A program made the position numbers and the translations under genes. The notes beneath the pieces are model-generated. The model saw nothing but the letters and a program-made list of their open reading frames with translations. It was not told where the DNA came from and did no database searches. Below, piece by piece: positions 3,455 through 21,802 of a stretch of 64,000 bases of DNA (positions are counted from its first letter, which is position 1; each line of letters starts with the position of its first letter). This DNA comes from a virus (lineage: Duplodnaviria > Caudoviricetes), in IMG/VR virus record IMGVR_UViG_3300031669_000010, positions 1 to 64,000 of that record; one strand, 5' to 3'.

Positions 3455-3751
3455 ATGGCTTGCTGTCAAAAGAGACGAAAAGAACAAGTTAAACAACTCA
3501 TGAAACGGAGATTATTTGAAATTGAAGGTTTCAGTACTCTCAAACTTTTAAAGAAGAACCCACCGAGATTGTTACATGATAAATTGATATTAGATTATCA
3601 TCGTAAGACCCACATGCTTTATAAAAATGCAATTAAACACAAACCACTTAATAGAGTGTTCATTAATCAAATAGTAGAACTGCATGACGAGTTTGTCAAA
3701 GAAATGTTGACAAGAGACATCGAACATAAAAATCCAATTCAAAGAATTTAA
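3455..3751 (+). CDS. Hypothetical basic protein
   Basis: 98-aa ORF starting 3 nt after the previous stop. Confidence 0.6.
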   Translation: MACCQKRRKEQVKQLMKRRLFEIEGFSTLKLLKKNPPRLLHDKLILDYHRKTHMLYKNAIKHKPLNRVFINQIVELHDEFVKEMLTRDIEHKNPIQRI

Positions 3752-5969: not shown

Positions 5970-5972
5970 TCC

Positions 5973-8900
5973 ATGATTAATTTTCTGAATCTTAATAATT
6001 TCAAGAAGGGGTTGAAATCCGTCACCACAACAGAGATTTTTTCTAAACCTGGTGAGTTTCACCCTGATGGTCTTTTTTCTGAACTAATCTTTGGTCCTGA
6101 GGAATCTCCTGAAAGAAAGAAAACATTTTCATATGTTGAATTGAACGCATTTGTGATACATCCAACTGCTTATATGCTTTTAATACAACTTGACAGAAAA
6201 CTCGAAATGTTTATTTCTGCTCAAGAAACATTCTCAGTAACTTCAAAGGGAGAGATGATACCAGATCCTGATGGAGTAACTGGAATATCAGAATTTATGA
6301 AGTTATTCCCAAAGATAAAATTTAGAGGGGGCACTGATTCTCGGGATAAGTTCGTTATAAAGTTAAAAGAAGCATATAAAAACGATACGTTATTCCTTAA
6401 TGTACTCCCAATAATTCCCCCAATTCAACGTGATGCTTATCAAGATGAGAAAGGTATGTGGGTCGTAGATCCTTTGAATGATTATTATGTTACTATTATA
6501 CGAAGAGCATATCAAATCAAAAGCGCTGCAGGCTCCGGTCCACTATTTGACTTGTTAAATTTTGAACTACAGAAAGCGGTTATCAACCATGATACATTTA
6601 TCAGAAAGTTAATTCAAAAGAAGCGTGGACTTATTCGTAATCAACTGCTTGGAAAACGTACTGACTTTTCAGGGCGTGCTGTCGTTACACCAGGACCAGA
6701 TTTAAAAGTAAATGAGATTGGTATACCGATGAGAATGGCAGTCAGTTTATTCGAACCATTTATAATTCATCGTTTGTTCAATTCAGGTAGAGTGGATCCG
6801 GGTCCGCTGAGTATTGAAGTTAAAAAGTTTACAGGTTTTGAATTATCAATTGATAGCATTAAACAGGTGTTTAAAGCTATTAAAGGTGGAGATAAACTCC
6901 CACAAAAATTATATGATATTATATTTGCAGCAACTGAAGTTTCTATGATGAATCGCCTTGTATTAGCAAAACGAGATCCAGCACTTCATGCTGAATCCGT
7001 AAGAGCATTTCACCCAATACTGATCGGAGGCAATACAGTTCAAATATGCACATTACAGGTAGCTGGATTCAATGCTGACTTTGATGGTGATACGATGGCA
7101 ATATATCATCCTATTACAAATGAGTCACAAAATGAAGTAAGAAGTCGTATGTTGAGATCTGAGGGTGGAGAAAACGATACAGCAGTAAACTTTGAACTTT
7201 CAAAAGAAATGTGTGTTGGTTTATTCACAATGACAAAAAATGTACAGAAATCTACTTCGCCAATTGCAGTATCTCAAAAAGATTTAGATTCTGCGGTTGA
7301 TCCTTATATACCAGTTGTTTACAGAAAGAAAAATACAACTATGGGAAAAGCAATTTATAATAGTGCATATCCAACAGATTTTCCATTTTTTGAAGGAGTG
7401 GTCACAAAGAAAATTGTTAATAGTATGATTCCTATTATACTTAAAAAATATGGTCAAGATCAGGCAATTAAAACATTTTCAAAATTAAAAGATACAGCAT
7501 TCAAATTTGCAACAATTGTAGCTCCAAGTGTTTCATTAGATGATATTCAATTGCCGTCTGAAATTTTACAGCTCAAACAAAAACTAACCAATGCTTCAAC
7601 AGAAGAAGCAGACTTATTAATAAAACAAATGCAGAAACTATTGATACAACATCTAAAGGAAACAGGGTTATATGATCTAATTGAATCAGGTGCTGGAAAA
7701 GGTTGGAGACAGCCCATGCAATTACTAGTAGCAAAAGGAATAATTGCTGATACAACTGGTAAAGTATTACCCCCAATCAAAGGATCATTCGCTGATGGAT
7801 TAACAAATAAAGAATATTTTTCATCAGCAGCAGGAGCAAGAAAAGGTATCATCGACCGTGTTCTAAATACATCAGAGACTGGTTACATGGCCAGAAAATT
7901 AGCATACGTTTTAAATAGTGTTGAGGTTGATAGACAATTAAAAGATTGTAAAACAAAACGAACTCTTGATTTAAGACTGACAAAGGAATTAGCTCCAAGA
8001 TTAAAAGGTCGTTGGGTACTCGAAGGCGGGACTCCACAATTATTTGATGTTAAGAATTACAAAATCGGAAATCAAATTTATCTAAGAACTCCTGTATTCT
8101 GTGAATCCACAAGATTGTGCCATACATGCTATGGAAAATTATTAGAGCGTCACAAAAGTCCTTATGTTGGAGTTATGGCAGCACAACTTGTAGGAGAGGC
8201 TGGTACACAAACAATCATGAAGACCTTCCATACAGGTGGCGCCGTTGATGTTGTTATAAGGGATGTTATTTCAGATATAGTTGGCAATGATCCTCTTGCA
8301 AATGAAGGAATCGTAAGAAAATTATTGAAACAGAATGAAAATCAACTATCATGCACTGAAGATTGTACTATAACTCTTACAACATCTGACTATCCAGTAT
8401 CAGGAGATTTAACATTCAACCAAGAAAAAACATTACTTCGTGCCAGAGCCATCGTATGTAAAGTTGAATTTGAAACTGCATTGTTTAATATCATTCTTGA
8501 TTATCCAGTTGAACTTCAAGTCTATGAATATGAACTTGTGGGGAAAGAGTTTATAAAATTAGAATATAAAAAGAATAGTACAATCTTAGAAATTCCAATG
8601 GAGACAGGCGAAACAAAAGCCCAAATTCAATATGTTGAAAGGCTACTTGGTGGGCGTGAAATCTATAAAGATGCAAATCATTTATACTTAAAGTTATTTA
8701 AAATATATGCTCCTCTTAGGGATATGGACAGTGTCCACCTTGAGGTTTTACTATCACAAGCATTAAGAGACAAAACAAATCCAAGTATTCCAGCAAGACT
8801 TGGAAAAACATGGAATCCGATAATGATTAATATTAAACAGATCGTATTCAAGACAAGTTTTATTCAAGGGTTGGCGTTTGAAAACATCAATGAAGCTATC

Positions 8901-8990
8901 AGAACTGGTTTAATTACAGAAGAAGGCGGAGATCCAAGCATTCTTGAAAAAGTATTAACTGGTACATTGGTAGAAGGGAAAAAGAAATAA
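5973..8990 (+). CDS. rpoC: Multi-subunit RNA polymerase beta'-like subunit (pair 1, probable virion RNAP)
   Basis: GLFSELIFGP, KRTDFSGRAV, catalytic NADFDGD, bridge helix GARKGIIDRVLNTSETGYMARKL, trigger loop GEAGTQTIMKTFHTGG. Confidence 0.93.
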   Translation: MINFLNLNNFKKGLKSVTTTEIFSKPGEFHPDGLFSELIFGPEESPERKKTFSYVELNAFVIHPTAYMLLIQLDRKLEMFISAQETFSVTSKGEMIPDPDGVTGISEFMKLFPKIKFRGGTDSRDKFVIKLKEAYKNDTLFLNVLPIIPPIQRDAYQDEKGMWVVDPLNDYYVTIIRRAYQIKSAAGSGPLFDLLNFELQKAVINHDTFIRKLIQKKRGLIRNQLLGKRTDFSGRAVVTPGPDLKVNEIGIPMRMAVSLFEPFIIHRLFNSGRVDPGPLSIEVKKFTGFELSIDSIKQVFKAIKGGDKLPQKLYDIIFAATEVSMMNRLVLAKRDPALHAESVRAFHPILIGGNTVQICTLQVAGFNADFDGDTMAIYHPITNESQNEVRSRMLRSEGGENDTAVNFELSKEMCVGLFTMTKNVQKSTSPIAVSQKDLDSAVDPYIPVVYRKKNTTMGKAIYNSAYPTDFPFFEGVVTKKIVNSMIPIILKKYGQDQAIKTFSKLKDTAFKFATIVAPSVSLDDIQLPSEILQLKQKLTNASTEEADLLIKQMQKLLIQHLKETGLYDLIESGAGKGWRQPMQLLVAKGIIADTTGKVLPPIKGSFADGLTNKEYFSSAAGARKGIIDRVLNTSETGYMARKLAYVLNSVEVDRQLKDCKTKRTLDLRLTKELAPRLKGRWVLEGGTPQLFDVKNYKIGNQIYLRTPVFCESTRLCHTCYGKLLERHKSPYVGVMAAQLVGEAGTQTIMKTFHTGGAVDVVIRDVISDIVGNDPLANEGIVRKLLKQNENQLSCTEDCTITLTTSDYPVSGDLTFNQEKTLLRARAIVCKVEFETALFNIILDYPVELQVYEYELVGKEFIKLEYKKNSTILEIPMETGETKAQIQYVERLLGGREIYKDANHLYLKLFKIYAPLRDMDSVHLEVLLSQALRDKTNPSIPARLGKTWNPIMINIKQIVFKTSFIQGLAFENINEAIRTGLITEEGGDPSILEKVLTGTLVEGKKK

Positions 8991-11900
8991 TGATTCAATT
9001 TAAATCATGGAAACAATATACACATCTAACTGATAGTGTAAGATTTCCGCAAAATGCAAAAGAGCCATTCATTTTATTCTACTTTTCCGAAAATTCAAAT
9101 TTTATAAATGACTATCCAAAATTGAATTTGAAAATACCTGATATGCGAATTGTGGCTGTCCCAGTAACTAAAATACCACGTACAAGATTAACAGCGGACT
9201 TGAGGAAAATATATAGATCTCTTGGACTTATTCCTTATACAATGCAACAAAAAGTACCGCCTGGTAGGAATTTAATTATTGATTTGTCTCAATATACAAA
9301 TGCAATTGATTTAGTTTACAAACCAGCTTCATATAGACAGAGAGCTGGTTTCTTTATTACCAATATACTAAATCAAATGGCAAATGCTTTCCCAGATAAT
9401 TATCAAAAAGTATTGTTCTATTCAGTTGATTTATCGAAAGATGTAAATTCATTTATCAATAAAAAAATATTTCCTGTATTAAGAGGAATGAAAGACGGCA
9501 CATTCGATTTTGATCATATGTTAATAAACTATTTGGATACAGGATCAACAAGATATCGTTTGCTTGTTAAAGATGGAGAGTATAAGTTTCCAAGGGTATC
9601 TCATTATATAAGAAATATTAAGGGTGTGTCTGGAGAAGAAGAACTTGAAGATGAAACAAAGAAAGCTGCAAGAATTGTTTCAAAGGCTGTTTCCAAAGAC
9701 ATCGATCCAGAAAATTCAGATAAGGTAGCAGGTGCGGTTGAAGATTATCTTGAAACCAATCCTGATGAAGTTGTTAAAATTTCGTCCGGAGATGCAACAC
9801 CTGAAGATGTAAGGGATGTGGCAACGACTTCAATTTTATACGGAGTTAGCGGTGATTTAGATAAAGCAATGTCTATATCAAGGAATATACCAAAGGATAG
9901 AAAGAAACTTGCATTAAAAGCTGTTGACAAAAACTTTTCAAATGAATTGTTAAAGCCAGTCAAAACAGTCAATTTAAGTACTGATATAAGAGTTCAGGTA
10001 TACTCACCTGAGAAAATGGTTGGGGGGAAATCTCCTGAGCATGTATATGAAAAGAGACAGGTTGACTTTAAGATAAATCTGAAAAAAGATTTAACAAATT
10101 CATTTAAAGTTTTAGAGTCAAAAGAGATTCCGTTGAAGTTTAAAAGTATTACATTTGCTGATAAACCTCAAAGACAAGGCGAACTAATGAAGTCAGACTT
10201 GTCAATTGCTACTATAAAAATGACAGACGAGTTTGGTAATGAACACGATGTTCAAATAGAACTTCCTCGTATTGATCCGAATACAGGAGTTTTCAGATTG
10301 AATGGAAAACAAAAATGCCTGGTAAATCAAATCGTACAAAATCCAATTACATTTCCAGCGCCAGGCGAGTCAAGATTTGAAAGCTCGTATTCTATTTTCA
10401 GAATCTATACAAAGGATTTGAGAAGTGAAAAATATTTAGAAGCCTTTATGTCATATAAAATGCCTCTTATAGTTCTACTTTCTTTCAGTTTTGGATTTGA
10501 TGAAACATTGAAAAAATATAAAATCAAATACGAAATAGTTGATGCGAAACCATCTGGACAACCTTTCGCAGCTAAACTTCAGGATGGACGCTATATTGTA
10601 TTTAAAGAAGTACAAAGTGACCTACAAAAACAACTTTGCCAGGGATTCATCCATGGTAAACTTTATCAATATAATGTTGATGCTGAATTTGGTACACATG
10701 TATATTTTGAAAATCTGATTATTAAAATGACAGGACGTCTTAACTCAACATTCTTAATCAACTCAAATCTTCAAAATATTGTTGATCCTGTAGCTAAACA
10801 AGTATTGATGAATAAACAATTACCAACTGAACTTGAAATGATCATGAAGTATATGGCAGAAAAGGTTGTTGATAGATTTACGATTAGCAGAAATGATATT
10901 AGCAATCAACGAATTAGAAACTCTGAGGTATTAGTTCATTTAGCACAAAAACAAATTCTTGCTGCATATACTGTCTACAAAGAGCAGGTGTTATCAGGTA
11001 ATGAAGAAGCTGTATTTAGTATTTCTCCAACCAAGGTATTAAGCGACTTCCTTATGACAGAATTAGTTGTTGATATGGAGTATGCAAATCCAGTTGAAGA
11101 AATGTCAACTATGACAAGAATATCTCCAGTTGGTAAAAAGGTTGGTGGTATTCCTGATAAAGGTGCCATTCATAACGACTCCAGAAATATACATGATTCT
11201 TATTTTGGGAATATTGATCCTCTTGATACACCTGAGAGTGGCAACGTTGGTATTGTTCAACAGTTAACAATTGATGCTCTCATTTCGTCCTCACGAGGTT
11301 TATTCGCAACAAAGAATATCACAAATAAGGAAGGTTCAGGAATGCTATCAACGACGACTGCAATGATTCCATTCCTTGAAAATACGGATGGTGCAAGAGT
11401 TATAATGCTTTCAAATCAAGCTAAACAGATGTTACCATTAAGAAACCCACAACCTCCCGTAGTTCAATCTGGATACGAATCAATTTTAACAGGAGTTCTA
11501 TCTGATAACTTTATAAAGAGAGCCCCATGTGCAGGTAAAATTCTTAGTGTTACTCGGGAGGTAATATCATTACAATGTGGAACTGGAAAAACAAAAAAGG
11601 TTGTTGATATTTCTCCTATTCATTTAAGATCAGGATCAGGAAAGAACACCCTAAGTGTTTTTAATTCACTTGTTAAACCTGGAGATTCGGTCAAGGAGGG
11701 TGAAGTAATTGCAGAGGGTGCATGTATGTCACAAGGATCTATCTCACTCGGAAGACCGTTATTAGCGGCTCTGATGCCATATGATGGTTATAACTTTGAG
11801 GATGGTGCTGTCATTAGCGAATCAGTTGCAAATAAAGATATGCTGACCTCCCTTCATGGTATTGAAGAAGAAGTATTAATTTCTCCTGAGGATAGGGTAC

Positions 11901-13075
11901 TTTTCATGGCAGAAAATGGAACAGATGTTTTAAAAGGTCACCCTCTATTAAGAAAAACAATGGGAGAAATTGAACAGATTATTGGCTACGAAGAAGATGA
12001 ATCAAGTGATTTATTCCAAGGACAGTTCATTAAAAAGAGTCCAGGCGGAAGAATAGTTGGCATTGAAGTTTATTCAAATGTTGGTGAAGATGCATTTCCA
12101 TCGCTGACTGCGCTTATTAAAAAGACTAATCTAAAAAACAAAAAGCTTCCAAGGGAATCATTCACAGTAAAGGGAGAAACTATCAAGGGTGCATTAATTA
12201 AATTCAAAATTGAACAAGAACTAAGAGTTGGTCTTGGAGATAAATTGTGTAATAGATATGGAAATAAAGGTATTATTTCATTGATTGAAAAGGATGAATT
12301 AATGCCAAGACTTCCATCTGGTGAAAAGGTAGACATTATATTAAATCCTCTTGGACTTATTGGTAGAATGAATATAGGTCAGTTATACGAAATGTATTGT
12401 GGTTTAATGGCAAGAGAAATGGGAATCCGTATACCTAGTCTATCAAAACCAAAAGCAATAGAACTTATTAAAATGGTGTTTGAGCAACTTGATACAACAG
12501 TAAATAAAAAGTCAACTGATCAACTTATAAAAAATCTTACAAGATTGTCTGCACCTCAGTATGCCAAAATGGTCGATCAGATTAAGAAGACAGGGTTTTA
12601 TCCGATTGTCATACCTCCATTTCAGGCACCAAAACACGACGCTATTAAAAGAGCTTTGAAATTGTTAGGACTAAAGACAGCATATAAATTAAAGCTTCCT
12701 AAATATAATACAACAACACAACATGAAGTTCCAGTTGGTTATATGTATATATCTAAGCTTGAGCATCTTGGAGCAGAGAAGATATATGCTAGAAGCACCG
12801 GACCCGTAACAGGCAAGACAGCACAACCAACATCAGGAAAGAAAAGAGAGGGTGGACAAAGATTGGGAGAGCTTGATACATATTCATTCATCTCATACAA
12901 CTGTCCAGGCGTCTTAGCCGAGTTCATGGGGCCACTTTCTGATGATTATATAACCAGAGAAGAAATAATGGCAGAGATTGTAGCAAAAGGTAATGCCGGT
13001 TACAAAGAACCAAAGATATCACCTGCAAGAGATTTATTAAATTCATATTTTATTTCATTAATGTTGACGAGGTAA
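8990..13075 (+). CDS. rpoB: Multi-subunit RNA polymerase beta-like subunit with long N-terminal extension (pair 1)
   Basis: DPLDTPESGNVG, SNQAKQMLPL, GYNFEDG, GDKLCNRYGNKG, NPLGLIGRMNIGQ, GGQRLGELD; starts overlapping the beta' stop. Confidence 0.93.
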   Translation: MIQFKSWKQYTHLTDSVRFPQNAKEPFILFYFSENSNFINDYPKLNLKIPDMRIVAVPVTKIPRTRLTADLRKIYRSLGLIPYTMQQKVPPGRNLIIDLSQYTNAIDLVYKPASYRQRAGFFITNILNQMANAFPDNYQKVLFYSVDLSKDVNSFINKKIFPVLRGMKDGTFDFDHMLINYLDTGSTRYRLLVKDGEYKFPRVSHYIRNIKGVSGEEELEDETKKAARIVSKAVSKDIDPENSDKVAGAVEDYLETNPDEVVKISSGDATPEDVRDVATTSILYGVSGDLDKAMSISRNIPKDRKKLALKAVDKNFSNELLKPVKTVNLSTDIRVQVYSPEKMVGGKSPEHVYEKRQVDFKINLKKDLTNSFKVLESKEIPLKFKSITFADKPQRQGELMKSDLSIATIKMTDEFGNEHDVQIELPRIDPNTGVFRLNGKQKCLVNQIVQNPITFPAPGESRFESSYSIFRIYTKDLRSEKYLEAFMSYKMPLIVLLSFSFGFDETLKKYKIKYEIVDAKPSGQPFAAKLQDGRYIVFKEVQSDLQKQLCQGFIHGKLYQYNVDAEFGTHVYFENLIIKMTGRLNSTFLINSNLQNIVDPVAKQVLMNKQLPTELEMIMKYMAEKVVDRFTISRNDISNQRIRNSEVLVHLAQKQILAAYTVYKEQVLSGNEEAVFSISPTKVLSDFLMTELVVDMEYANPVEEMSTMTRISPVGKKVGGIPDKGAIHNDSRNIHDSYFGNIDPLDTPESGNVGIVQQLTIDALISSSRGLFATKNITNKEGSGMLSTTTAMIPFLENTDGARVIMLSNQAKQMLPLRNPQPPVVQSGYESILTGVLSDNFIKRAPCAGKILSVTREVISLQCGTGKTKKVVDISPIHLRSGSGKNTLSVFNSLVKPGDSVKEGEVIAEGACMSQGSISLGRPLLAALMPYDGYNFEDGAVISESVANKDMLTSLHGIEEEVLISPEDRVLFMAENGTDVLKGHPLLRKTMGEIEQIIGYEEDESSDLFQGQFIKKSPGGRIVGIEVYSNVGEDAFPSLTALIKKTNLKNKKLPRESFTVKGETIKGALIKFKIEQELRVGLGDKLCNRYGNKGIISLIEKDELMPRLPSGEKVDIILNPLGLIGRMNIGQLYEMYCGLMAREMGIRIPSLSKPKAIELIKMVFEQLDTTVNKKSTDQLIKNLTRLSAPQYAKMVDQIKKTGFYPIVIPPFQAPKHDAIKRALKLLGLKTAYKLKLPKYNTTTQHEVPVGYMYISKLEHLGAEKIYARSTGPVTGKTAQPTSGKKREGGQRLGELDTYSFISYNCPGVLAEFMGPLSDDYITREEIMAEIVAKGNAGYKEPKISPARDLLNSYFISLMLTR

Positions 13076-13078
13076 GCA

Positions 13079-13693
13079 ATGTTTGAAAATCATGATCTGA
13101 AAGTCCTTCTTGGTAATTCAATAAGAGAACCAGAAGTGGATTACGACGATGCAGAAGTTGCAAGTGAATTGGGCATTCCCGTTAGAGAGGAAGCATTAAA
13201 AGAATATTTTTATGTGACTATTGTGGATAACATCGGCAAGAAGGATTTTCGTGAAGAATATCTATCTGTTTATCCAGACACTGTTTCGTACTCAACTAAA
13301 CATAAACAAATTTTAGCTGAAGCAATAATGAAACAAATAAAACAAGTATATGATTTTATCCCATCTGTAACTGTTGACACAAACAGTGAAAAAGATATTG
13401 CAGATGTATTGAAATTTCTCGAGTTCATTGAATATGACAATGAAGATTTTATAATTGAAGTATGGACATTTCTAAAGCCAGAAACAAACCCATTCCAAGT
13501 TGAAAAATATTGTGAACAAAATAAAATGAAAATTGTTTCCGAAATTGAGGAGCAATTAAGCTCACGAGATTTTCCTTGGATGATTGCCGATTTTTTAAGA
13601 ACATATAATAAAGAAGATATTACGGCTTGGTTTTGTGAAAAGTCTAAGAATTTAAGAAGTGCTATACTTCTGAAACTAATCGAAGGAGATTAA
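13079..13693 (+). CDS. Hypothetical acidic protein in RNAP cluster 1
   Basis: 204-aa ORF closely following the beta subunit gene. Confidence 0.65.
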   Translation: MFENHDLKVLLGNSIREPEVDYDDAEVASELGIPVREEALKEYFYVTIVDNIGKKDFREEYLSVYPDTVSYSTKHKQILAEAIMKQIKQVYDFIPSVTVDTNSEKDIADVLKFLEFIEYDNEDFIIEVWTFLKPETNPFQVEKYCEQNKMKIVSEIEEQLSSRDFPWMIADFLRTYNKEDITAWFCEKSKNLRSAILLKLIEGD

Positions 13694-13694
13694 A

Positions 13695-13955
13695 ATGGCT
13701 GATACGAAAAAGGTTATAATCAAAAAAGGTAGTATGCTATTAGAAGCTAATCGTAGTGATTTAGTCGAAGTAAGTGAAACACATGATGGAATTGCTTTTA
13801 ATTTCAAAGGTGGGATACAATTATATTATACAAACGATTTCATGCCAGTGGGAATGAAAGAAGTCATCAGAAATACTTCAAATCATTTTGATAATCAAAA
13901 AATTATTTTTGATCTGGATAATGAAAGACAACCTGCAAGGGTTGATGCTACCTAA
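13695..13955 (+). CDS. Hypothetical protein
   Basis: 86 aa, RBS GGAG, last gene of the cluster. Confidence 0.6.
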   Translation: MADTKKVIIKKGSMLLEANRSDLVEVSETHDGIAFNFKGGIQLYYTNDFMPVGMKEVIRNTSNHFDNQKIIFDLDNERQPARVDAT

Positions 13956-13973
13956 TCATTTAATAAATTATAT

Positions 13974-13987
13974 CTATATATATTAAT
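13974..13987 (+). promoter_or_regulatory. CTATATATATTAAT motif, copy 2, upstream of the ncRNA array
   Basis: Exact match to 3752-3765; about 30 nt before the first structured unit. Confidence 0.5.
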
Positions 13988-14016
13988 ATCTGAAGATAAA
14001 CATTTCTTACAATTAT

Positions 14017-14077
14017 ATGGAGACTTGGTGTGATTTCAGATTATTGGAAATCAACGCAATCACATTTACAACTCCAT
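14017..14077 (+). ncRNA. Y-RNA-like unit E1
   Basis: ATGGAG/CTCCAT outer stem, ACTTG internal loop, GTGTGATT/AATCACAT inner stem. Confidence 0.6.
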
Positions 14078-14086
14078 TATATTTTT

Positions 14087-14182
14087 GCCGAGAAGACTTG
14101 GTGTAATTTCTGATCGCGGTTCAAGACCGTGTTGGCGTTATTGTATGTCAATACAAATAAAATTACATATATTACTTCTGGC
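14087..14182 (+). ncRNA. Y-RNA-like unit E2 with a T-arm-like hairpin
   Basis: GCC-G-AGAAG/CTTCT-GGC outer stem, ACTTG loop, GTGTAATTT/AAATTACAT inner stem; internal CGCGG-TTCAAGA-CCGTG (T-psi-C-like) and TTGTAT-GTCA-ATACAA hairpins. Confidence 0.65.
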
Positions 14183-14191
14183 ATTATTTTA

Positions 14192-14253
14192 TGGGGTGTA
14201 CCACTAACATAATAAACCATTCGGGGTTCATTGTTTTTGTGGCTCGCACCCCA
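14192..14253 (+). ncRNA. Variant stem-closed unit E3
   Basis: TGGGGTGT/GCACCCCA stem; shares GGGTGTACCA with E4. Confidence 0.45.
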
Positions 14254-14262
14254 CCATTTTAA

Positions 14263-14320
14263 CGGGTGTACCAAGGATGGATACAGTTAATAGCTGGTAG
14301 TCTGAGGATAAATACACCCG
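14263..14320 (+). ncRNA. Variant stem-closed unit E4
   Basis: Perfect CGGGTGTA/TACACCCG stem; shares GGGTGTACCA with E3. Confidence 0.45.
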
Positions 14321-14371
14321 ATCAGTTTATGCCGGGTGATACACATGTTTATCCATGTGCCGGCTCCATCG

Positions 14372-14504
14372 TTGGTAGAGACTTTGTATAGATTCAGAAA
14401 ATTACGTGTATAACGTAAGGCCCTTAATCGACAGGGATAAATGTCGATTGCCAGGTTTGGCAGAACCACAAAAACTGCCACGACTATACCTATCACTCTA
14501 CCAA
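14372..14504 (+). ncRNA. Y-RNA-like unit E5 (multibranched)
   Basis: TTGGTAGAG/CTCTACCAA outer stem, ACTTT loop, GTATAG/CTATAC inner stem; internal hairpins TTACG/CGTAA, AATCGACA/TGTCGATT, TGGCAG/CTGCCA. Confidence 0.6.
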
Positions 14505-14518
14505 ACCTTTTATACAGT

Positions 14519-14653
14519 TTCCTGAAAGACTCTAGTGTAATTTCTGATATAAAGATCCAATGGCGGATCATTTGCATATGGAGCAAAAGACGGCAAGTTC
14601 GATTCTTGCTGTATCAACCAAGTAGTACCAATTACATTTTCTACTTTCAGGAA
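14519..14653 (+). ncRNA. Y-RNA-like unit E6 enclosing a tRNA-like cloverleaf
   Basis: Perfect TTCCTGAAAG/CTTTCAGGAA outer stem, ACTCTA loop, GTGTAATT/AATTACAT inner stem. Confidence 0.7.
14545..14620 (+). tRNA. Atypical tRNA-like element, anticodon ATG (His-like), encoded CCA
   Basis: 76 nt: acceptor TGATATA/TGTATCA, D stem GATC/GATC with GG in the loop, anticodon stem TTTGC/GCAAA with loop ATATGGA, T arm GCAAG-TTCGATT-CTTGC, discriminator A + CCA; lacks U8 and A14. Confidence 0.6.
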
Positions 14654-14660
14654 TTTTTTC

Positions 14661-14720
14661 GGGGTGACTTAGTGTGACTTTAGATTCCAAGCGGCCGAAA
14701 AGTCACACTTAATTCACCCC
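14661..14720 (+). ncRNA. Y-RNA-like unit E7
   Basis: GGGGTGA/TCACCCC outer stem and AGTGTGACTT/AAGTCACACT inner stem with the same GACTTnGTGTGAYTT core. Confidence 0.6.
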
Positions 14721-14826
14721 AAACCCACAACTAAAAAAGGGAAATGAATGGTTTTATTTTTCATCCTAAAAAATTGGATATGAATATCCCACGTTGGAAT
14801 TAACTAATTAAGGAGGAATCAGAGAA

Positions 14827-16356
14827 ATGACAGAAAAATCGCTTAAAATTGATTCTGGAATGTTACAGTTTGCTCCGAAAGGTGCGTTCTATGAAGAAGC
14901 TGATCAACAGTTTCAACGAGTATTCCAGATGTGGACAGAGCTATTTTCATTTGACCGAACCCTATTTTGTCTAACCACACTTTTGGGTGGTACCGGTTTT
15001 GCCAAAGGTTCTATGAACCACATGTTACTCGCCAATCCTCAAAGTGTAACAGGTCGTGAACTTGTGCCTGAGGGAATGGCATTCGATTATGAAAGTAAAG
15101 TTATTAGGTACAATCTCTCAAAGGAAAGAATTCCAAGAGCATTGAAAAACTTGCTGATGTTAACTGGGGCCGAAGGATGCACTAAAGTCAACAATTCCCG
15201 GACCAGAAAAATCATCCTTGAGTTTATCTTCAATCGCTCAATTTCAGAACTTGAAGGTCTGGCAATCAATTATAAATCCAAATTGAAGAAATTAGTCAGA
15301 CATGCCCTTGGAAAACAAGAAGTCTATAATATCCTTAATGGGGATGCGCTGTTGTTTAAAAAACGTATCGGTCGTTATAAAATGCAAGCTCTTCCAGTGA
15401 TTTTTCATATCTTTGATAAAAGACCTCCGGCAGGCACTGCCCACACAAGATATACAAAAATTGAAAACTATTGGGATCTTCGTGAAGCTGCAGAATCCGG
15501 TAACGTCGAACAATTCAGAAAGCTCATGGATGGGATGCCGAATCGAACTGTCATGGGATTCAGAAACACTTATAAAGTGCCAATTGAAAAATCTGAAATC
15601 TATGAAGTAGCAAAGATGGGCAACAAGGAATCCCTTCAAATGGAAGCCGCTGTTAAACGAAGTGGTGCTACCAAAGCAAAAGAGATCAACTACAAAAATC
15701 AAGACATCTATGATCTCTGGAAAGCATTCTATTTTAAACTCCTAAATAACGATCCGGACAACATGGACAAGATCATCGAAGCGATCGACTATCAAGCATG
15801 CAAAATGGATCGGATGGATATAGGAGATTGTGTCGTTATCATTGATGCATCAAGATCAATGGTAGGAAGTAATGAAAGAAAGCTACACCCATTCTTGACT
15901 TCTCTCTCAATTCTTTCAGCACTGGAAAATGTGAAGGATGTTATTTACGTTGGAGGAAAAAGAGTGGCAACCCCAACCATAGATCCGATCAGTGTTATCA
16001 TTCCTGATAATCATACGGATCTTTGGCGAGGTCTCACAGAAGCTGTGATTGCCGGTACCCCGAACATTGTTGTTATTTCGGACGGTTATGAAAATACAAT
16101 AAAAGGTATGTTTGAGCATACCTACAATCATTTTAAGAGTTCAGGTTATGAATTTAATCTGATACATTTAAATCCTGTATTTTCTGCTGATGCAAAAACC
16201 GGTTCATCGAGAAGGCTGACGGCTGACACAAAACCGTTGCCTGTATCGAGTTACAAGTTTCTTGAGACAGAATTGATCTTTGACCGCATGATCGAGAACA
16301 GAGAAGTGGTCAAGAATCTGCTCGTCAGCAAGTATCACAAACTATTAAAAGAATAA
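14827..16356 (+). CDS. vWA-domain protein, putative divergent TROVE/Ro60-like RNA-binding protein
   Basis: 509 aa; C-terminal MIDAS VIIDASRSM and IVVISDGYEN after a long basic helical region, matching Ro60 size and architecture; adjacent structured RNAs. Confidence 0.55.
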   Translation: MTEKSLKIDSGMLQFAPKGAFYEEADQQFQRVFQMWTELFSFDRTLFCLTTLLGGTGFAKGSMNHMLLANPQSVTGRELVPEGMAFDYESKVIRYNLSKERIPRALKNLLMLTGAEGCTKVNNSRTRKIILEFIFNRSISELEGLAINYKSKLKKLVRHALGKQEVYNILNGDALLFKKRIGRYKMQALPVIFHIFDKRPPAGTAHTRYTKIENYWDLREAAESGNVEQFRKLMDGMPNRTVMGFRNTYKVPIEKSEIYEVAKMGNKESLQMEAAVKRSGATKAKEINYKNQDIYDLWKAFYFKLLNNDPDNMDKIIEAIDYQACKMDRMDIGDCVVIIDASRSMVGSNERKLHPFLTSLSILSALENVKDVIYVGGKRVATPTIDPISVIIPDNHTDLWRGLTEAVIAGTPNIVVISDGYENTIKGMFEHTYNHFKSSGYEFNLIHLNPVFSADAKTGSSRRLTADTKPLPVSSYKFLETELIFDRMIENREVVKNLLVSKYHKLLKE

Positions 16357-16369
16357 GGAGGTCATCACC

Positions 16370-17332
16370 ATGTCTATATTTAAAACGTTGAAGTTCGAAG
16401 ACATCGAGATCGGCGATCTACAGTCCGTCGATGAGATGACCATTGTTCCAATATTGGGTGGTGAAAGGGGTGACGTAGCAAAACCTTCAAGTCTGAGTTT
16501 CAGACGCACAACTTCATATGGAACAATGGTATTTGAAAATACCGACCCTGCTAAGGAAGCAATTGTCCCTGCCAATATAATGGTTCGAAGTCGAGCTGGT
16601 CAGGATCATGCGATGAGTGGTTCAGGAATCGTAATGAAAAATCAATCTCGTTCATTTGATAATGCATGCTGTATCGAACAAACTCAAGGTGGATATTTGG
16701 ATGAGTCAGGTGATCAAGATGTCCTTCCAATCAATTTGAGAAAAGCATTACTCGACCCAGAAATAAGATCTCTTCATAGTTATGATAAGTTGTGGGGGAA
16801 GATTAGTGCGTGGATGAAAGGAGTTAACATGTCCAGCAGGGGGTCAGCACATCTGAGGTATTTCTACGATACTCCAGATATCAAACAAGCATTGGAGGAT
16901 TTCGCAGCAGAGTTTGAGCCAGTTGAAAATCAAATTGGTGCGATCGTGATGTTCTCCGGTATTCCAGTCGGTATTGAAATTATGCCTTCTTCTGACCATT
17001 GGGAGGCATACTGGAAGCTATTGATCCGTGGATGTTATGGAGCAGAAATGATTCGATTAAAAATGTTGGGAAAGCTGAAATCCTCAACATTAATCCTACC
17101 GGACATTCCAAAAGAAGCAGGACCAAAAGAAGTCCAAAAGATTCTTACAGATTTCACTCAACACTTAAGAGAAGAAGTCCTGCCAATACTGGAAAATATT
17201 AAAATTAAAACCCAAAGAGTCGTGAACACAGATGGTACATTACAGACAACACTTCTGCATACATCATCCGGAGGTGGGGGTGATATTATCCAGCAGGGTG
17301 ATATGCCTGTGTATCTGTCATTGGTACTTTAG
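16370..17332 (+). CDS. ARPP-1/DUF6569-like domain protein
   Basis: N-terminal MTIVPILG, GQDHAM and ACCIEQTQGG resemble the LtifPl...QDR...CVEqGRW pattern recalled for this family; not verified by search. Confidence 0.45.
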   Translation: MSIFKTLKFEDIEIGDLQSVDEMTIVPILGGERGDVAKPSSLSFRRTTSYGTMVFENTDPAKEAIVPANIMVRSRAGQDHAMSGSGIVMKNQSRSFDNACCIEQTQGGYLDESGDQDVLPINLRKALLDPEIRSLHSYDKLWGKISAWMKGVNMSSRGSAHLRYFYDTPDIKQALEDFAAEFEPVENQIGAIVMFSGIPVGIEIMPSSDHWEAYWKLLIRGCYGAEMIRLKMLGKLKSSTLILPDIPKEAGPKEVQKILTDFTQHLREEVLPILENIKIKTQRVVNTDGTLQTTLLHTSSGGGGDIIQQGDMPVYLSLVL

Positions 17333-17343
17333 GAGAATTGGAT

Positions 17344-17511
17344 GTGAATGAAATAGCTGAGAATCAACTCCGAAAACTACGAAGGCGCGTGGAGGAATTT
17401 TTGCGCAATACGACTCCTGAGATGCTCATTAAAATTGCAGACGTTTGTAATATCAAAGTTCCTGACAACCTTAGACAACGATATATGCCAAAGGAGGGTG
17501 ACTCTAAATAG
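17344..17511 (+). CDS. Small hypothetical protein (55 aa, not in ORF track)
   Basis: GTG start 8 nt after GGAG; VNEIAENQLRKLRRRVEEFLRNTTPEMLIKIADVCNIKVPDNLRQRYMPKEGDSK. Confidence 0.5.
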   Translation: MNEIAENQLRKLRRRVEEFLRNTTPEMLIKIADVCNIKVPDNLRQRYMPKEGDSK

Positions 17512-17554
17512 TCACCCTTCAAGGGTATATAACGAACTTTTCAATGCAAATAAC

Positions 17555-17647
17555 AAGCACCGTCCTTCCACATAGTGGTTGTTGATAAAGCTTTTATTTC
17601 CTTCTTAGGTCATAAAGCTATGTCAGCAACTTCCGTGTGGCGTGCTT
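17555..17647 (+). ncRNA. Long imperfect hairpin, candidate small RNA or regulatory leader
   Basis: Nested pairings AAGCAC/GTGCTT, CACAT/GTGTG, GTTGTTGAT/GTCAGCAAC, AGCTTT/AAAGCT in an ORF-free gap. Confidence 0.4.
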
Positions 17648-17697
17648 TTGACCATTGCCGGTTTTTTGTTCTGATTTTTAAATAAAGGAGTTAATTA

Positions 17698-18273
17698 ATG
17701 AAACAAGTTTCAGTTGAAAAGTTCATTGAAAAATTGGGTGCAGATGTTTACCCGATTACTATTGTTAAGTTTCTATTAAACAAAAGGCGGATACTATCAT
17801 ACTTTTCTAAAGCTGCGGATGAAGATTTTGAAATAAGAGTGAAATATACAGTTGATCATACTGACTGCCCAATCTGCGAAGAAAAGAAAGCAGAAGGCAT
17901 TTTATGTAGACAACATACTTCAATCCAACGCGTACTTACCGCCAGAAATGTTGCGTACGACCTAGACACAAATACATTCTTATATAAAAATGAGATATTC
18001 AGAATGGTGGGCAAAAGACTGGTCGTTGTTTACTGTCCACATCCGAAGTTGATTACGGGTGAAATTACAGATTCTAAGGTAAGGAAAATCAATCCGATCA
18101 CAATTGAAGATCCGGAGTTACTTGAACTTCCTGAATATTCAAAGTTATGTGATTTCATATCAAGCGATTTATTGGATCAATATATAAGATGCTGGTTTAA
18201 CAATGAGTTCTCTCTTGTTACAATACCAGATGACCGAAACGGTCAAAATTGGTGTCTCGTACCAAATAGGTAA
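17698..18273 (+). CDS. Hypothetical protein with putative Zn-binding motif
   Basis: 191 aa; CPICEE...CRQH; RBS AAGGAG. Confidence 0.65.
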   Translation: MKQVSVEKFIEKLGADVYPITIVKFLLNKRRILSYFSKAADEDFEIRVKYTVDHTDCPICEEKKAEGILCRQHTSIQRVLTARNVAYDLDTNTFLYKNEIFRMVGKRLVVVYCPHPKLITGEITDSKVRKINPITIEDPELLELPEYSKLCDFISSDLLDQYIRCWFNNEFSLVTIPDDRNGQNWCLVPNR

Positions 18274-18301
18274 AAATATCATTTTTAGGAGGAATTACAT
18301 T

Positions 18302-19270
18302 ATGAGTTTTGAGGAATATCAAGATCTCCAAGGTACAGGTTTTACAGGTGGTAGCTCGGAGCCAACACCACCGGAAGACGAGTTTTTTCACAGTGTTTAT
18401 ATCTCTGGAAAAACCAGAAAGAATCATCTGAACATCGAAGAGAAAATCGAGCAGTTTCAAGTGAGAGGCGTTCAGTACAATTTGGATAAGGTACATATGG
18501 TTATTACACACACGAAGGAGATACTCGCAAAGATCGAGACCGAACGTGGACGTGATACCATTAAGTGTTTCTCATTCAAAGAAGGAGCACCACCTTGGAA
18601 TGGAACAACCAAACTGCAAGATGGAAGAAATAGGGAATGTCCCATGACATCTGCAGAAAGAGCAAACGTTGACTTCTGTAATCTATGTAGATCTCAATTG
18701 CTGGTTGCAGGTATTTACTGCAACGAAAATGGAAGTCCCATCCTCACAGAAGACAAGAAACCTATCTTTGTCTTTATTAGAGGAAAGGGTATGAGATATT
18801 CAAATGTTTCTGAATATCTCAACAATCTATATAATGAAGATCTGTCTCCAATCTTCGAACCTGTTACCGAACAGACTAAGATGTTTGAAAAATCTGTTGT
18901 GAATCAAAAGAGATTCGTAACGAAAATTACCAGGACCACATCAATGTCCTCATACAACAACGAAGTAAACGTCTTCGCACTTGATAAGGGGATTGAACTT
19001 CCGAAGGATGCTGTACTAAAGATATTGAAGTTATCGAAAGATACAGTCGGCAAGTTCAATACGAAATTCGATTGGTCCAAGAGCAAGCAAGCCTCACAGA
19101 CAACAGGATATGGTGCAAAACCTGAAGGCGTATTATCAACTGAGGCAGAAACAAAACCTGATACAGGCGGTGGACCGGCGGTAGATGACAAAGTTGCTCC
19201 AGAACCTTCAAAAGAGGAAGCAGCGCCGGCTGATGGTAAAGTGTTCAGTTTTGACGACATAGAATTTTAA
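18302..19270 (+). CDS. Probable single-stranded DNA-binding protein
   Basis: Start moved to ATG 18302 (AGGAGG RBS); flexible acidic C-terminal tail ending FSFDDIEF, typical of phage SSBs. Confidence 0.5.
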   Translation: MSFEEYQDLQGTGFTGGSSEPTPPEDEFFHSVYISGKTRKNHLNIEEKIEQFQVRGVQYNLDKVHMVITHTKEILAKIETERGRDTIKCFSFKEGAPPWNGTTKLQDGRNRECPMTSAERANVDFCNLCRSQLLVAGIYCNENGSPILTEDKKPIFVFIRGKGMRYSNVSEYLNNLYNEDLSPIFEPVTEQTKMFEKSVVNQKRFVTKITRTTSMSSYNNEVNVFALDKGIELPKDAVLKILKLSKDTVGKFNTKFDWSKSKQASQTTGYGAKPEGVLSTEAETKPDTGGGPAVDDKVAPEPSKEEAAPADGKVFSFDDIEF

Positions 19271-19298
19271 TTAACCAATAACTACAAGGAGTTTCGCA

Positions 19299-20543
19299 AT
19301 GCCAGATGAAAGTAAGCAAGAACAAGAATTGAAATACCACGAGCGTCTGAACATTTCAGTGCTCTCTATTGCGAGGATCAAGACATTAATTAAAGAGGAT
19401 ATAAAAGATACTATAGCTGCTTGGCAAGCTGGTCGAAATGTTGACAAACAATGTTTTCATATCATTGGTCCAGCGGGTGTCGGTAAAACACAAATATGCT
19501 ATCAGATTGCCGAAGAATTATCAAAAGATTTATTTGGCAATGACGAGGATATGGAGTTTGGAATTCTTATGGTCAAAGCTCCTGTTCTATCAAGGGATGA
19601 TTTTATTATTCCCTTTCCGGTTGGAGCAGAGACTGGAGATCCAACATTCAAAATGTTATATTCAGACTTCGTCCCCAAGGAAAAGAACTCATTTGGTTTA
19701 TTCGTGATTGATGAATTTTCACGCGGAGACCATCAGTTGCAGCAATTGTTATGGCAAATTCAAAATGAGTATTCTGTTCACCGTCATCTATTTCCAAAGG
19801 GATGGTTCGTTATATCAATTGATAATCCAGACGATTCCGAATACTCGATGGATAACCTTGAAGATGCTGCTGGGCTTAGAAGACAGCTTCATCTTTATAC
19901 AGAAGTGCTTGCAACAGATTTCTTGAACTATGCTATTGAGCACGACTTCCATCCATATGTTGTTGAGTTTATTCAAACCCATCCAGAGTATCTTTATGAC
20001 TTTCAAGCTCAAAAGATTGGGTCGGTTTATGCAAATCCAGCAAGTTATGAAAAATTATCTGATCATCTATGGAAGATGCAACTGCGTCGGAAGAACATAG
20101 ACTTCGATGAGATTGAATACAAGGCTTCTGGACTTCTCAACACACACATGACCAGGTTATTCATTGAGTTCGCTCGGGATAAGAAAGACATCAATCCCAA
20201 GGAAGTCTTCTATAATCTCAATAAGGTCAAACCTCAAATCACCGCTTTATTGAAAGATAACAACAATGCTAAGTTGGGTGAATTGATGGTCGGATTCTGT
20301 ACATTCATGACAACCTCGATGCCAGAATATGATGAAGCGAAGTTGAAGAATGTACTTGACTTTCTATTAATGATGCCCATTGATACTGCGGCATTGTTTA
20401 TATCGCAAATTGATTCATTTGAAAGATCTTCAAGGGCTTTCAAATTTATGACAAAGATTCACTTGTCACTTCTGAAAGGGTCGAAAGCTTATAAGAGCAA
20501 TTTCTATGATCCAATAGTGAAGGCAGGTGAGGGGAATCTCTAA
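19299..20543 (+). CDS. MoxR-like AAA+ ATPase
   Basis: Walker A GPAGVGKT, Walker B FVIDEF, IDNP, DAAGLRRQ; paired with the downstream vWA gene. Confidence 0.8.
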   Translation: MPDESKQEQELKYHERLNISVLSIARIKTLIKEDIKDTIAAWQAGRNVDKQCFHIIGPAGVGKTQICYQIAEELSKDLFGNDEDMEFGILMVKAPVLSRDDFIIPFPVGAETGDPTFKMLYSDFVPKEKNSFGLFVIDEFSRGDHQLQQLLWQIQNEYSVHRHLFPKGWFVISIDNPDDSEYSMDNLEDAAGLRRQLHLYTEVLATDFLNYAIEHDFHPYVVEFIQTHPEYLYDFQAQKIGSVYANPASYEKLSDHLWKMQLRRKNIDFDEIEYKASGLLNTHMTRLFIEFARDKKDINPKEVFYNLNKVKPQITALLKDNNNAKLGELMVGFCTFMTTSMPEYDEAKLKNVLDFLLMMPIDTAALFISQIDSFERSSRAFKFMTKIHLSLLKGSKAYKSNFYDPIVKAGEGNL

Positions 20544-21802
20544 TGGAAAATCAAGGAGACCGCCTCAAGGAACTAGTTGCTCGGTTTGTATTGAAGTATA
20601 ACTACTGGGGTTATCTGTTCTCTCGCATTAGAAGAAAGCCAACATCGGCTGCACAACTCGGCTCAGTTATGGGTGTGGGTCCTGAGAAAGATGGGACTCT
20701 CACATTATATTATGCACCTGAATTATTAGGCAATACCGCTGATAGGGAAGTGTTAAAAATAGTTGAGCATGAGGGTATGCATGTGCTAAATAAACATATT
20801 CCGAGATATCTACGCATCATGGCAAATGAAACATCCGAGCAAAGAAAAACTATAAAACATGATGTTTGGAATGTGGCTGCTGACTGTACAGTTAATGTAC
20901 AGGCAAAGATTAGAGAACCCATTATCATTGATGGAAAACCTTGGGCACCATGTCTTCCAGGTAAGTACGGCTTGGAAGAAGGTAAGGTGACAGAATATTA
21001 TTTCTATGAACTATTAAAGAGCGCCAAGACAGTTTCACTACCAATGAGTGCAGCATTTAATGGGCATGGAAAGTGGAAAAGTGGAGCACAAGGTGTAGCT
21101 GATCTTAGTGCACTATCAAGAAAAGTAGATCAACATGTTCAAAACATCATTAAGGAATCTGTCAAAAGTTTCAATAAAGACAGAGGTACAATTCCTGGTC
21201 ACATAGCAGAACTGATTGAAGGTGCACTTGCTCCACCGAAAGCTCCGTATTATCAAATCATCAGAAAGTTGATAAGGGGTTCAAGGTTCAGTAAGTTTGT
21301 TAGAAGTCCAACGAAGATCAATCGTAAACGCACATACGTTTTTACATTAGGAGATAATAAATGTGTACCACAGATATCTCCATTTCCAGGTAAGACAAGA
21401 GACATGACATTTGACATTGCCGTGATGATTGATACATCTGGAAGTATGAGCGAAGATGATATTCGAGAAGGTCTATCAGGTGTTAAGAACATAATTGAAA
21501 AAGATCGTCATTGTTTTACAACTGTACTTGAAGTTGATACCGTAGTTGAGAAAGAATATGAAGTCAAACGAATCCGAGATATTCAGTTTAATGTTAAAGG
21601 TAGGGGTGGTACAACATTACTCCCAGGCCTTACAAGAGCAAGACAATTAGGAGTTGATGTTTGTCTGGCTTTTACGGATGGATATGTTGACGACATTAAT
21701 AGTGTTCCAAGGAAATTTCTACCTAAGAGATTGATCTGGGTTATCAACGAAGGAGGTACAGCAAAAAGCATTAACCAAACTGGGTATGTGGTACATATAT
21801 GA
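20543..21802 (+). CDS. HExxH metallopeptidase-like plus vWA domain protein (DUF2201-like)
   Basis: HEGMH, WNVAAD, MIDAS IDTSGSM, GRGGT, FTDGY. Confidence 0.8.
   Translation: MENQGDRLKELVARFVLKYNYWGYLFSRIRRKPTSAAQLGSVMGVGPEKDGTLTLYYAPELLGNTADREVLKIVEHEGMHVLNKHIPRYLRIMANETSEQRKTIKHDVWNVAADCTVNVQAKIREPIIIDGKPWAPCLPGKYGLEEGKVTEYYFYELLKSAKTVSLPMSAAFNGHGKWKSGAQGVADLSALSRKVDQHVQNIIKESVKSFNKDRGTIPGHIAELIEGALAPPKAPYYQIIRKLIRGSRFSKFVRSPTKINRKRTYVFTLGDNKCVPQISPFPGKTRDMTFDIAVMIDTSGSMSEDDIREGLSGVKNIIEKDRHCFTTVLEVDTVVEKEYEVKRIRDIQFNVKGRGGTTLLPGLTRARQLGVDVCLAFTDGYVDDINSVPRKFLPKRLIWVINEGGTAKSINQTGYVVHI

Follow-up and report, generated by a model that had tools for sequence, protein, structure and literature searches.

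Does an uncultured large phage carry its own, very diverged version of the ribonucleoprotein (RNP) that Ro60, a protein conserved from bacteria to humans, forms with Y RNAs? The question is raised by a locus within positions 1 to 64,000 of the IMG/VR virus record IMGVR_UViG_3300031669_000010 (Duplodnaviria; Caudoviricetes), the 64-kb stretch of DNA that we analyzed as a whole and call the window. In this locus, a gap of 870 nucleotides (nt; 13956-14826) precedes a gene encoding a protein of 509 amino acids (aa), which is itself followed by a gene encoding a 320-aa protein. A first-pass annotation of the sequence had described the gap as devoid of credible open reading frames (ORFs) and filled with structured RNA units of one architecture, and had proposed that these RNAs, the 509-aa protein, and an ARPP-1-like protein form a divergent phage Ro-like RNP. 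The fold of the 509-aa protein, the units upstream of its gene, and the ARPP-1 gene downstream support this proposal, and we consider it likely that the locus is a very diverged phage RNP module of the Ro60/Y-RNA type.

Searches of Pfam, PHROGs, PDB sequences, and PDB profiles assigned no family to the 509-aa protein. Because sequence searches gave nothing, it is the fold that links this protein to Ro60. We modeled it with AlphaFold (AF2), using an alignment of full-length relatives (n=77) as input, and obtained a model with a predicted local distance difference test (pLDDT) of 92.5 and a predicted template modeling score (pTM) of 0.90. When the model was compared with the PDB using Foldseek, ranks 1 to 11 were all Ro60/TROVE structures (from Thermus phage phiLo, Xenopus, human, and Deinococcus), with E-values from 1.4e-5 to 5e-4. 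VIA-align, which is independent of Foldseek, aligned residues 7-483 of the model with 1yvp_A (Z 15.0, 412 residues, root-mean-square deviation 5.4). Next came 9l5y_B (Z 14.6) and then 2nvo_A (Z 13.1); these alignments span about 410 residues and take in both the ring and the vWA domain. Matches restricted to the vWA domain reached a Z of at most 11.8. Among the named matches in BFVD are TROVE proteins and, from a Gordonia phage, a 'Ro-like RNA binding protein' (E 9.6e-7), and TROVE clusters are among the neighbors in the Atlas (score 0.94). Hence, the structural comparison suggested by the first-pass annotation recovered the Ro60 fold with two independent aligners and in BFVD. The C-terminal vWA domain with a MIDAS (metal ion-dependent adhesion site) that it had proposed is also present: the protein has the motif DxSxS ... 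T ... D, and among the 77 sequences D340, S344, D419, G420, and N423 are invariant, while S342 is found in at least 90%. We accept the 509-aa protein, as modeled, as a Ro60 fold (closed TROVE ring of HEAT-like helical repeats plus vWA/MIDAS) lying outside the Pfam family.

This protein family is widespread in phage metagenomes of soil and sediment. Clustering at an identity of 55% or more gives at least 120 groups, and all source names given to them are 'hypothetical protein'. The GenBank phage records contain a single match to the family, in an uncultured phage of 462 kb. The closest relatives of the phage from which the window comes are IMG/VR contigs of up to 223 kb, and the DNA of the window is present in 16 public runs, all of them DNA metagenomes (soil, marine sediment). 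Ten related loci (L001 to L010), with 40-76% protein identity to the window, share a conserved gene order: an ORF of 204 aa, one of 86 aa, a gap of 600-1400 nt, the 509-aa gene, the 320-aa gene, and genes for proteins of 191 and about 320 aa. In the window, the gap has no conserved ORF. The ORFs that can be drawn in it (65, 99, and 78 aa) have only short matches, which fall on both strands in identical places and therefore reflect the conservation of nucleotides, not of proteins. The description of the gap as lacking a credible ORF is thus correct. Folded as one RNA, the whole gap reaches -252.7 kcal/mol, against -197.5 for shuffled sequences (z -7.2), and the units fold independently within it.

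What are these units? Each of the five (Table 1) has a variable outer stem closing with G-C, an internal loop with ACUU on the 5' side and 5-6 nt on the 3' side, and an inner helix of 8-9 base pairs (bp) in which GUGURAUU pairs with AAUYACAU, followed by a UCAGA box and then by the cargo. We call the conserved part the handle. Folded individually, the five units have z-scores from -3.2 to -6.2. Short units of the window and of related loci, 15 in all, were aligned with MAFFT (alignment A2), and RNAalifold recovered from them the two helices seen in the single folds, with compensatory changes in 11 of the 14 pairs. A2 was the source of a covariance model, R1, whose matches over the 64-kb window are units 1, 5, 2, and 4 only, all inside the gap, with scores on the + strand far above those on the - strand. 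Unit 3 falls short of significance with R1. The unit folds well and, on inspection by eye, has a 5' arm in keeping with the consensus, and its helix is shortened and departs from the consensus at paired positions, so we regard its handle as degenerate. The claim of five units of the same architecture therefore holds for coordinates and folds in all five and for R1 in four, and has to be relaxed for unit 3. The units sit 106-810 nt upstream of the 509-aa gene, on the + strand. The end of unit 5 is 106 nt before the start codon and leaves uncovered the strong Shine-Dalgarno sequence of the gene (AAGGAGG, 14812-14818). The spacers between the units are U-rich.

Table 1. Coordinates of the structured RNAs, genes, and other features of the locus; positions refer to the window
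Feature	Position	Strand	Description	Support
1361-aa ORF	8990-13075	+	matches phage RNA polymerase beta-subunit PHROGs	
AT-rich motif TATCTATATATATTAATA	13971-13988	+	possible phage promoter before the array	weak
Handle unit 1	14017-14077	+	short-hairpin cargo	R1 64.7 bits, E 9e-14; fold z -3.2
Handle unit 2	14090-14180	+	T-arm-like hairpin and 10-bp hairpin	R1 38.6 bits, outside training set; fold z -3.7
Element A	14192-14256	+	acceptor-like 7-bp stem GGGGUGU/GCACCCC, then ACCA	-26.2 kcal/mol, z -3.6
Element B	14263-14320	+	hairpin opening with GGGUGUACC	fold
Element C	14331-14368	+	two-step hairpin GCCGG...CCGGC, then UCCA	
Handle unit 3, degenerate	14373-14503	+	inner helix GUAUAG/CUAUAC; three hairpins in multiloop	fold z -5.3
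Handle unit 4	14519-14653	+	10-bp outer stem; tRNA-like cloverleaf cargo	R1 30.7 bits (14523-14649), outside training set
Handle unit 5	14661-14720	+	short-loop cargo	R1 61.8 bits; fold z -6.2
Ro60-like protein, 509 aa	14827-16356	+	helical ring (about residues 1-330) and vWA domain with MIDAS D340, S342, S344, D419	
ARPP-1 protein, 320 aa	16370-17332	+	PF20208, profile positions 2-293 of 297	74.4 bits, cut-off 27
Gap 3' of ARPP-1 gene, 365 nt	17333-17697	+	strongly structured	z -4.5
MoxR-like AAA+ ATPase	19299-20543	+	phrog_1297	E 6.5e-29
DUF2201 vWA/metallopeptidase	20543-21802	+		

Is the handle tied to the Ro60-like gene beyond the window? R1 gave 35 further matches in related phages. Among these, 34 lie in L001 to L010, upstream of the homologous gene and on its strand, with 2-8 units per locus, and one weak match (E 0.008) is in L052. 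No match was found in L011 to L042. In alignment A3, derived from R1, 94.7% of the cells are paired, against 39-49% when the partner is slid, compensatory changes are found in 12 of the 14 pairs, and 0 of 500 shuffles reach the observed values; since A3 was fitted to R1 these counts are inflated, and the independent MAFFT/RNAalifold analysis agrees with them. The arms that had been noted to covary between the units of the window thus also covary among relatives, and the search with a covariance model shows that homologous genes carry upstream units with covarying helices as in the window. The possibility of CRISPR-like or mobile-element repeats was rejected in view of the strand specificity of the units and of their covariation in the form of RNA helices.

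The exact handle of the window clade is missing from distant relatives (about 25% protein identity). In most of these relatives, a tRNA-like gene, often with an impossible or odd anticodon, ends 230-500 nt before the protein gene. Minimum free energy folds of these distant loci enclose 10 of the 14 tRNA-like genes in a long-range stem running from flank to flank; GA(A)CU follows the outer stem in 8 of the 14, and a YCAG box precedes the cargo in 6. It therefore seems that the architecture of the handle is family-wide and the sequence of its helix clade-specific. A detector based on regular expressions and helices showed a strong + strand bias in the distant loci and was too strict to provide usable counts. 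In five loci (L015, L018, L019, L020, and L035), ARAGORN identified tRNA-like genes beside the Ro-like gene, on its upstream or its downstream side, with anticodons of 2 or 4 nt, or with stop (UUA), selenocysteine (UCA), or pyrrolysine (CUA) anticodons. These odd genes of distant loci could be mimics or suppressor tRNAs.

Part of the cargo of the handles resembles tRNA. The T-arm-like hairpin of unit 2 has a 5-bp stem and the loop UUCAAGA. The cloverleaf of unit 4 (14545-14620) has a GG D loop, a UUCGAUU T loop, the anticodon AUG, and an encoded CCA; its acceptor stem begins within the UCUGAU box, and its open end continues into the handle. ARAGORN annotates it as tRNA-His(atg), and the Rfam tRNA model (RF00005) scores it at 30.5 bits for a gathering score of 29. 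The A34 of this anticodon is unusual for His. Unit 4 and its orthologue in L001, the closest relative, have in common the outer stem, the D arm, the anticodon stem, and the T arm, and differ at 6 of 7 anticodon-loop positions; the CCA is absent in L001. Eight of nine related loci have tRNA-like cargo, and the handle-borne cloverleaves of relatives are of the types Lys(UUU), His(GUG), Gln(UUG), Tyr(AUA), Asp(AUC), and Ile. The 223-kb genome of L001 carries 24 high-scoring tRNAs about 90 kb away from the locus, and its handle-borne cloverleaves score 47.5 and 29.4 bits. The separation from this tRNA bank and the divergence of the anticodon loops indicate that the handle-borne cloverleaves are not part of the regular tRNA supply.

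The presence of cloverleaves raises another explanation, in which the units are processing stems of tRNA or small-RNA precursors, like the RNase III stems that flank rRNAs or the RNase III sites of T7. Leader and trailer would pair, a nuclease of host or phage would then free the cargo, and the Ro-like gene would be loosely related or unrelated to the array. Several cargoes are indeed well-formed cloverleaves with an encoded CCA (Lys(UUU) of L009 reaches 69.5 bits and Ile(GAU) of L002 reaches 67.3 bits), a stem with an internal loop is generally reminiscent of known RNase III sites, and the U-rich spacers set the units apart. However, many units, among them 1 and 5 of the window and 15 short ones in relatives, have no tRNA at all, their cargo being just a small loop, and the sequence of the inner helix is kept beyond what pairing demands, which suggests specific recognition by a protein. 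Furthermore, the array is linked with the Ro-like gene in each of the ten close relatives and is confined to this one place in the 64 kb, the ordinary tRNA bank of the relative is at another site, with no handles reported for its genes, and the anticodons of the cloverleaves are odd (A34 in His, Asp, and Tyr types) and change fast. We regard this explanation as unlikely.

Somewhat less likely still is that the array acts in cis, as the leader of a Ro-like/ARPP-1 operon, its hairpins being operator or attenuator sites by which the protein or another factor would control translation or read-through, not free small RNAs. The position of the array directly upstream and on the same strand, the lack of a convincing terminator before the gene, and the variation from 2 to 8 units among relatives would all fit such a leader. 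Yet an operator has no need for cargo as diverse and elaborate as a cloverleaf, a T arm, and CCA minihelices. Canonical Y RNA genes also adjoin rsr on the same strand (PMC4201824), and the distance of the last unit from the start codon, with the Shine-Dalgarno sequence free, speaks against a leader.

The RNP reading includes a further protein. The gene downstream had been described as ARPP-1-like, and its Pfam match confirms it. An ARPP-1 homologue lies directly downstream of the Ro-like gene in 80 of the 80 loci that we fetched. In 42 sequences, C101, Q18, Q78, and H80 are invariant, as are E183 and F182, and the model of the protein has a pLDDT of 92.5. ARPP proteins (PF20208) are known from ARG-centered conflict systems (PMC9503650), and the product of 16370-17332 matches them over its full length and keeps their conserved Cys and Gln. 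Its invariant residues fit the enzyme-like description given there. In some of those neighborhoods the partners of ARPP are vWA proteins (PMC9503650), whereas the context of a Ro60-like ring and tRNA-like RNAs is not among them. The ARPP systems of that study also have an ADP-ribosylglycohydrolase and/or a rhodanese-phosphatase as neighbor, whereas neither was found among the eight ORFs of the window scanned from 13079 to 21802.

We modeled the complex between the Ro60-like protein and ARPP-1, which scored 0.63 in each set of three runs, whereas none of three controls exceeded 0.00; the mark used for this score is reached by 58 of 80 solved complexes and by 2 of 110 mismatched pairs, and the score is the model's own confidence, computed on self-made alignments. 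Contacts agree between runs at 95% or more, and the pLDDT of the partner is 86. On the Ro60-like side, the predicted interface is the MIDAS face (residues 342-344, 394-397, and 419-428). On the ARPP-1 side, it comprises residues 16-21, 180-186, and 241-266, which include the invariant Q18, F182, and E183. The model supports the binding of ARPP-1 to the MIDAS face, and such a seat would make ARPP-1 the effector of the ring.

The idea that the 509-aa protein is instead a generic helical and vWA co-chaperone, for instance the partner in virion assembly of the MoxR ATPase encoded 3 kb downstream, with a convergent likeness to Ro60 and unrelated RNAs, can draw on the proximity of the MoxR-like and DUF2201 vWA-metallopeptidase genes, on the synteny of the former in at least four relatives (L001, L002, L003, and L010), and on the frequent pairing of vWA proteins with MoxR (PMC7824862), but it is very improbable, since this MoxR gene already adjoins a vWA partner of its own, with which it makes up the chaperone pair of group 2.2 jumbo phages (PMC7824862), since the best structural matches span ring and vWA domain in the Ro60 arrangement, the top 11 all being Ro60, and since the constant neighbors over 80 loci are ARPP-1 and, where examined, tRNA-like RNAs, not MoxR.

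Several observations weigh against a Ro60/Y-RNA module. The Pfam TROVE family (PF05731) is matched neither by the 509-aa protein nor by its 77 relatives (E up to 1), nor in four phage genomes that carry such relatives, and searches of PDB sequences and profiles with the 509-aa protein returned no Ro60. The Z-scores of 13.1 to 15.0 obtained with Ro60 structures have to be read knowing that arrangement alone can give helical-repeat models a Z of about 13-14. On the RNA side, unit 3 and elements A, B, and C have no demonstrated link to the Ro60-like protein, and the 5' arms of the handle (GACUU-GUGURAUUUCAGA) lack the GNCGAAN0-1G motif. The comparison with Rfam that the first-pass annotation had suggested was negative: Y_RNA and YrlA have no match in the region of the window (E up to 1) or in nine related loci (E up to 0.1), and the matches otherwise are tRNA and chance rows of microRNAs and small Cajal body RNAs. 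This implies that the RNAs are Y-like by architecture and context, and not members of described families. Concerning ARPP-1, its model has no informative relative in the PDB (best Foldseek E 0.018; the best VIA match has a Z of 6.5 over one 43-residue beta-meander), and we know of no chemistry established for it. The inflation of the A3 counts and the self-assessed nature of the complex score belong to the same side, and the module is known here from sequence and models. On the other side, the computations do show the fold, the covarying RNA structure, the strict linkage of the genes, the modularity of the cargo, and the separation from the ordinary tRNA bank.

How does the module compare with known systems? 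The literature search returned no paper on a module of Ro60-like protein, ARPP-1, and handle RNAs. Jumbo phages have been noted to encode TROVE proteins (PMC7824862), and YrlA has been reported in 22 phages (PMC4201824). The closest parallel is Thermus phage phiLo, whose Ro60 has two Y-like RNAs encoded upstream, Yrl1 and Yrl2, and binds them in vitro (PMC12135203). This protein (PDB 9KOP, 9L5Y; PMC12135203) is likewise phage-encoded, combines a helical-repeat ring with a vWA domain, and is the best or second-best structural match of the 509-aa protein. The genes of its RNAs lie directly upstream, and the RNAs have a stem of 5' and 3' ends that an internal loop separates from another stem, as in the window. 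However, the Ro60 of phiLo is a recognized homologue in sequence databases (PMC12135203), whereas the protein of the window has no Pfam TROVE match. The two phiLo RNAs were found through a CGAA motif, whereas the window has five handle units and three other hairpins, another handle sequence, and modular tRNA-like cargo. The effector proposed for phiLo is the host PNPase, with no ARPP-1 described, whereas the window has ARPP-1. Relative to the known phage Ro60, the novelty is thus the divergence beyond Pfam, the obligate ARPP-1, the arrays of up to eight units, the different handle, and the open cloverleaves and CCA minihelices.

The bacterial Rsr systems with YrlA/YrlB or Yrn1 (Salmonella, M. 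smegmatis, D. radiodurans, and mycobacteriophages; PMC4201824) provide a second comparison. In these systems, no more than 4 kb separates the RNA genes from the protein gene, and both are on one strand, which is also true of the window and of L001 to L010. They have several Y RNAs, at least one of them with a tRNA-like domain (PMC4201824), as in the window. The 5'/3' stem typical of Y RNAs is found in our units as two covarying helices with an asymmetric internal loop between them. tRNA-like domains are borne by YrlA RNAs, and that of M. smegmatis is cut by RNase P and receives CCA (PMC4201824). YrlA has the GNCGAAN0-1G motif and an acceptor-like stem closed by a loop, whereas unit 4 has a complete cloverleaf with an anticodon arm and an open acceptor stem. 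The partner genes differ as well, being rtcBA or PNPase in bacterial Rsr systems and ARPP-1 in the window. The apical loop of unit 5 (14692-14697) reads GCCGAA. Nowhere else does the array match GNCGAA, the YrlA motif, or CGAA, by which the phiLo Yrl RNAs were found; it is probably a chance match.

Apart from the handle units, the array contains hairpins without handle. The two GGGTGTACCA stems that had been reported between the units are real and start at 14194 and 14264. To these we add a third hairpin at 14331-14368. The first of the GGGTGTACCA stems turns out to be a minihelix that resembles an acceptor and has ACCA at its end, so that two of the three hairpins (A and C) finish in NCCA as tRNA acceptor arms do. 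Element A has homologues in L008 and L003, with one compensatory change (U-A to C-G). A search with nhmmer for relatives of element B returned only itself. Element C is identical over about 45 nt in L003 (2477-2520) and L008 (2051-2094), whose Ro-like proteins are just 51-61% identical, and the distant L034 has a variant of it (5946-5990), differing by one compensatory pair, immediately 5' of a tRNA. The sequence (U)UUAUG precedes elements A and C and unit 1 (14186-14192, 14325-14330, and 14008-14016, respectively), and in L003 and L008 both elements likewise follow UUUUAUG. A start signal of a phage polymerase or a nuclease site could explain this sequence.

The first-pass annotation had also placed a repeated promoter-like 14-mer just before the array. 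The repetition of TATCTATATATATTAATA is confirmed: allowing 3 mismatches, the window has 4 copies where 0.23 would be expected; two only precede a + strand feature, which limits the promoter claim. The copy at 3749 is in a gap before a + strand ORF. A scan of sigma-70 promoters showed no enrichment. The matches of the 1361-aa ORF suggest a phage with its own multisubunit RNA polymerase, to which sigma-70 promoter scans may not apply. Terminator-like matches within the array were rejected because they are the stems of the units. On the other side of the two genes, the gap 3' of ARPP-1 has a hairpin with 25-nt arms at 17479-17534 and a second long hairpin. Long hairpins are found 3' of ARPP-1 in L005 and L006 as in the window, and their Rfam scores are chance matches to microRNA precursors.

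How might such a module work? The eight structured RNAs upstream would be the RNA partners of the Ro60-like ring. Ro60 binds Y RNA on its outer surface and single-stranded RNA in its central hole, and the handle, like the helix of Y RNAs that Ro binds, would be where the ring docks. The first-pass annotation had suggested transcription of the array as one precursor and a role in RNA repair, decay, or decoy, both of which are inferences. The array would be cut at the U-rich spacers into separate RNAs that differ in the cargo they display, which ranges from a short or a T-arm hairpin to a fold of three hairpins and a whole tRNA-like cloverleaf. ARPP-1 would be an enzyme-like effector carried by the ring at the MIDAS site. 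The role of the particle would most likely be centered on tRNA, either presenting tRNA mimics to tRNA-binding factors or recruiting these factors. The outcome could be an action on damaged tRNA or the diversion of host defenses that target tRNA.

A link to these defenses is speculative, and is drawn from the identities of the cargo and from the fast-changing anticodon loops. Phage tRNAs that evade or neutralize such defenses (PMC10264068, PMC11555353, PMC11464382) are likewise phage-encoded and tRNA-shaped, and the cargo types of the window clade (Lys, Tyr, His, Asp, and Gln) overlap targets known for nucleases. The anticodon loops of the window clade are unusual and change fast. Those evading tRNAs are free and functional, whereas the tRNA-like part in the window is embedded in a handle predicted to bind protein and is linked to the Ro-like and ARPP-1 genes. 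We tentatively put forward a more specific possibility, which we hold to be doubtful: a counter-defense particle with exchangeable bait, in which the ring with its MIDAS-borne ARPP-1 would load tRNA mimics by their common handle and would trap host effectors that target tRNA or guide the reversal of damage. The mimics would comprise T arms, minihelices that end in CCA, and entire cloverleaves whose anticodon loops evolve fast, and the targets would be anticodon nucleases, nucleases of the CCA tail, and tRNA ADP-ribosyltransferases.

What the MIDAS of Ro60 does and why Y RNAs mimic tRNA are two questions that can be tested in this branch of the family. Here, the MIDAS face is the predicted seat of a fixed partner, ARPP-1, which would contribute an invariant glutamate to the interface, and in the RNAs a handle that stays constant is cleanly set apart from tRNA-like cargo that can be swapped. 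ARPP, a domain without known function, gains a concrete RNA context. For the phages themselves, the module may add a new route against tRNA-directed immunity.

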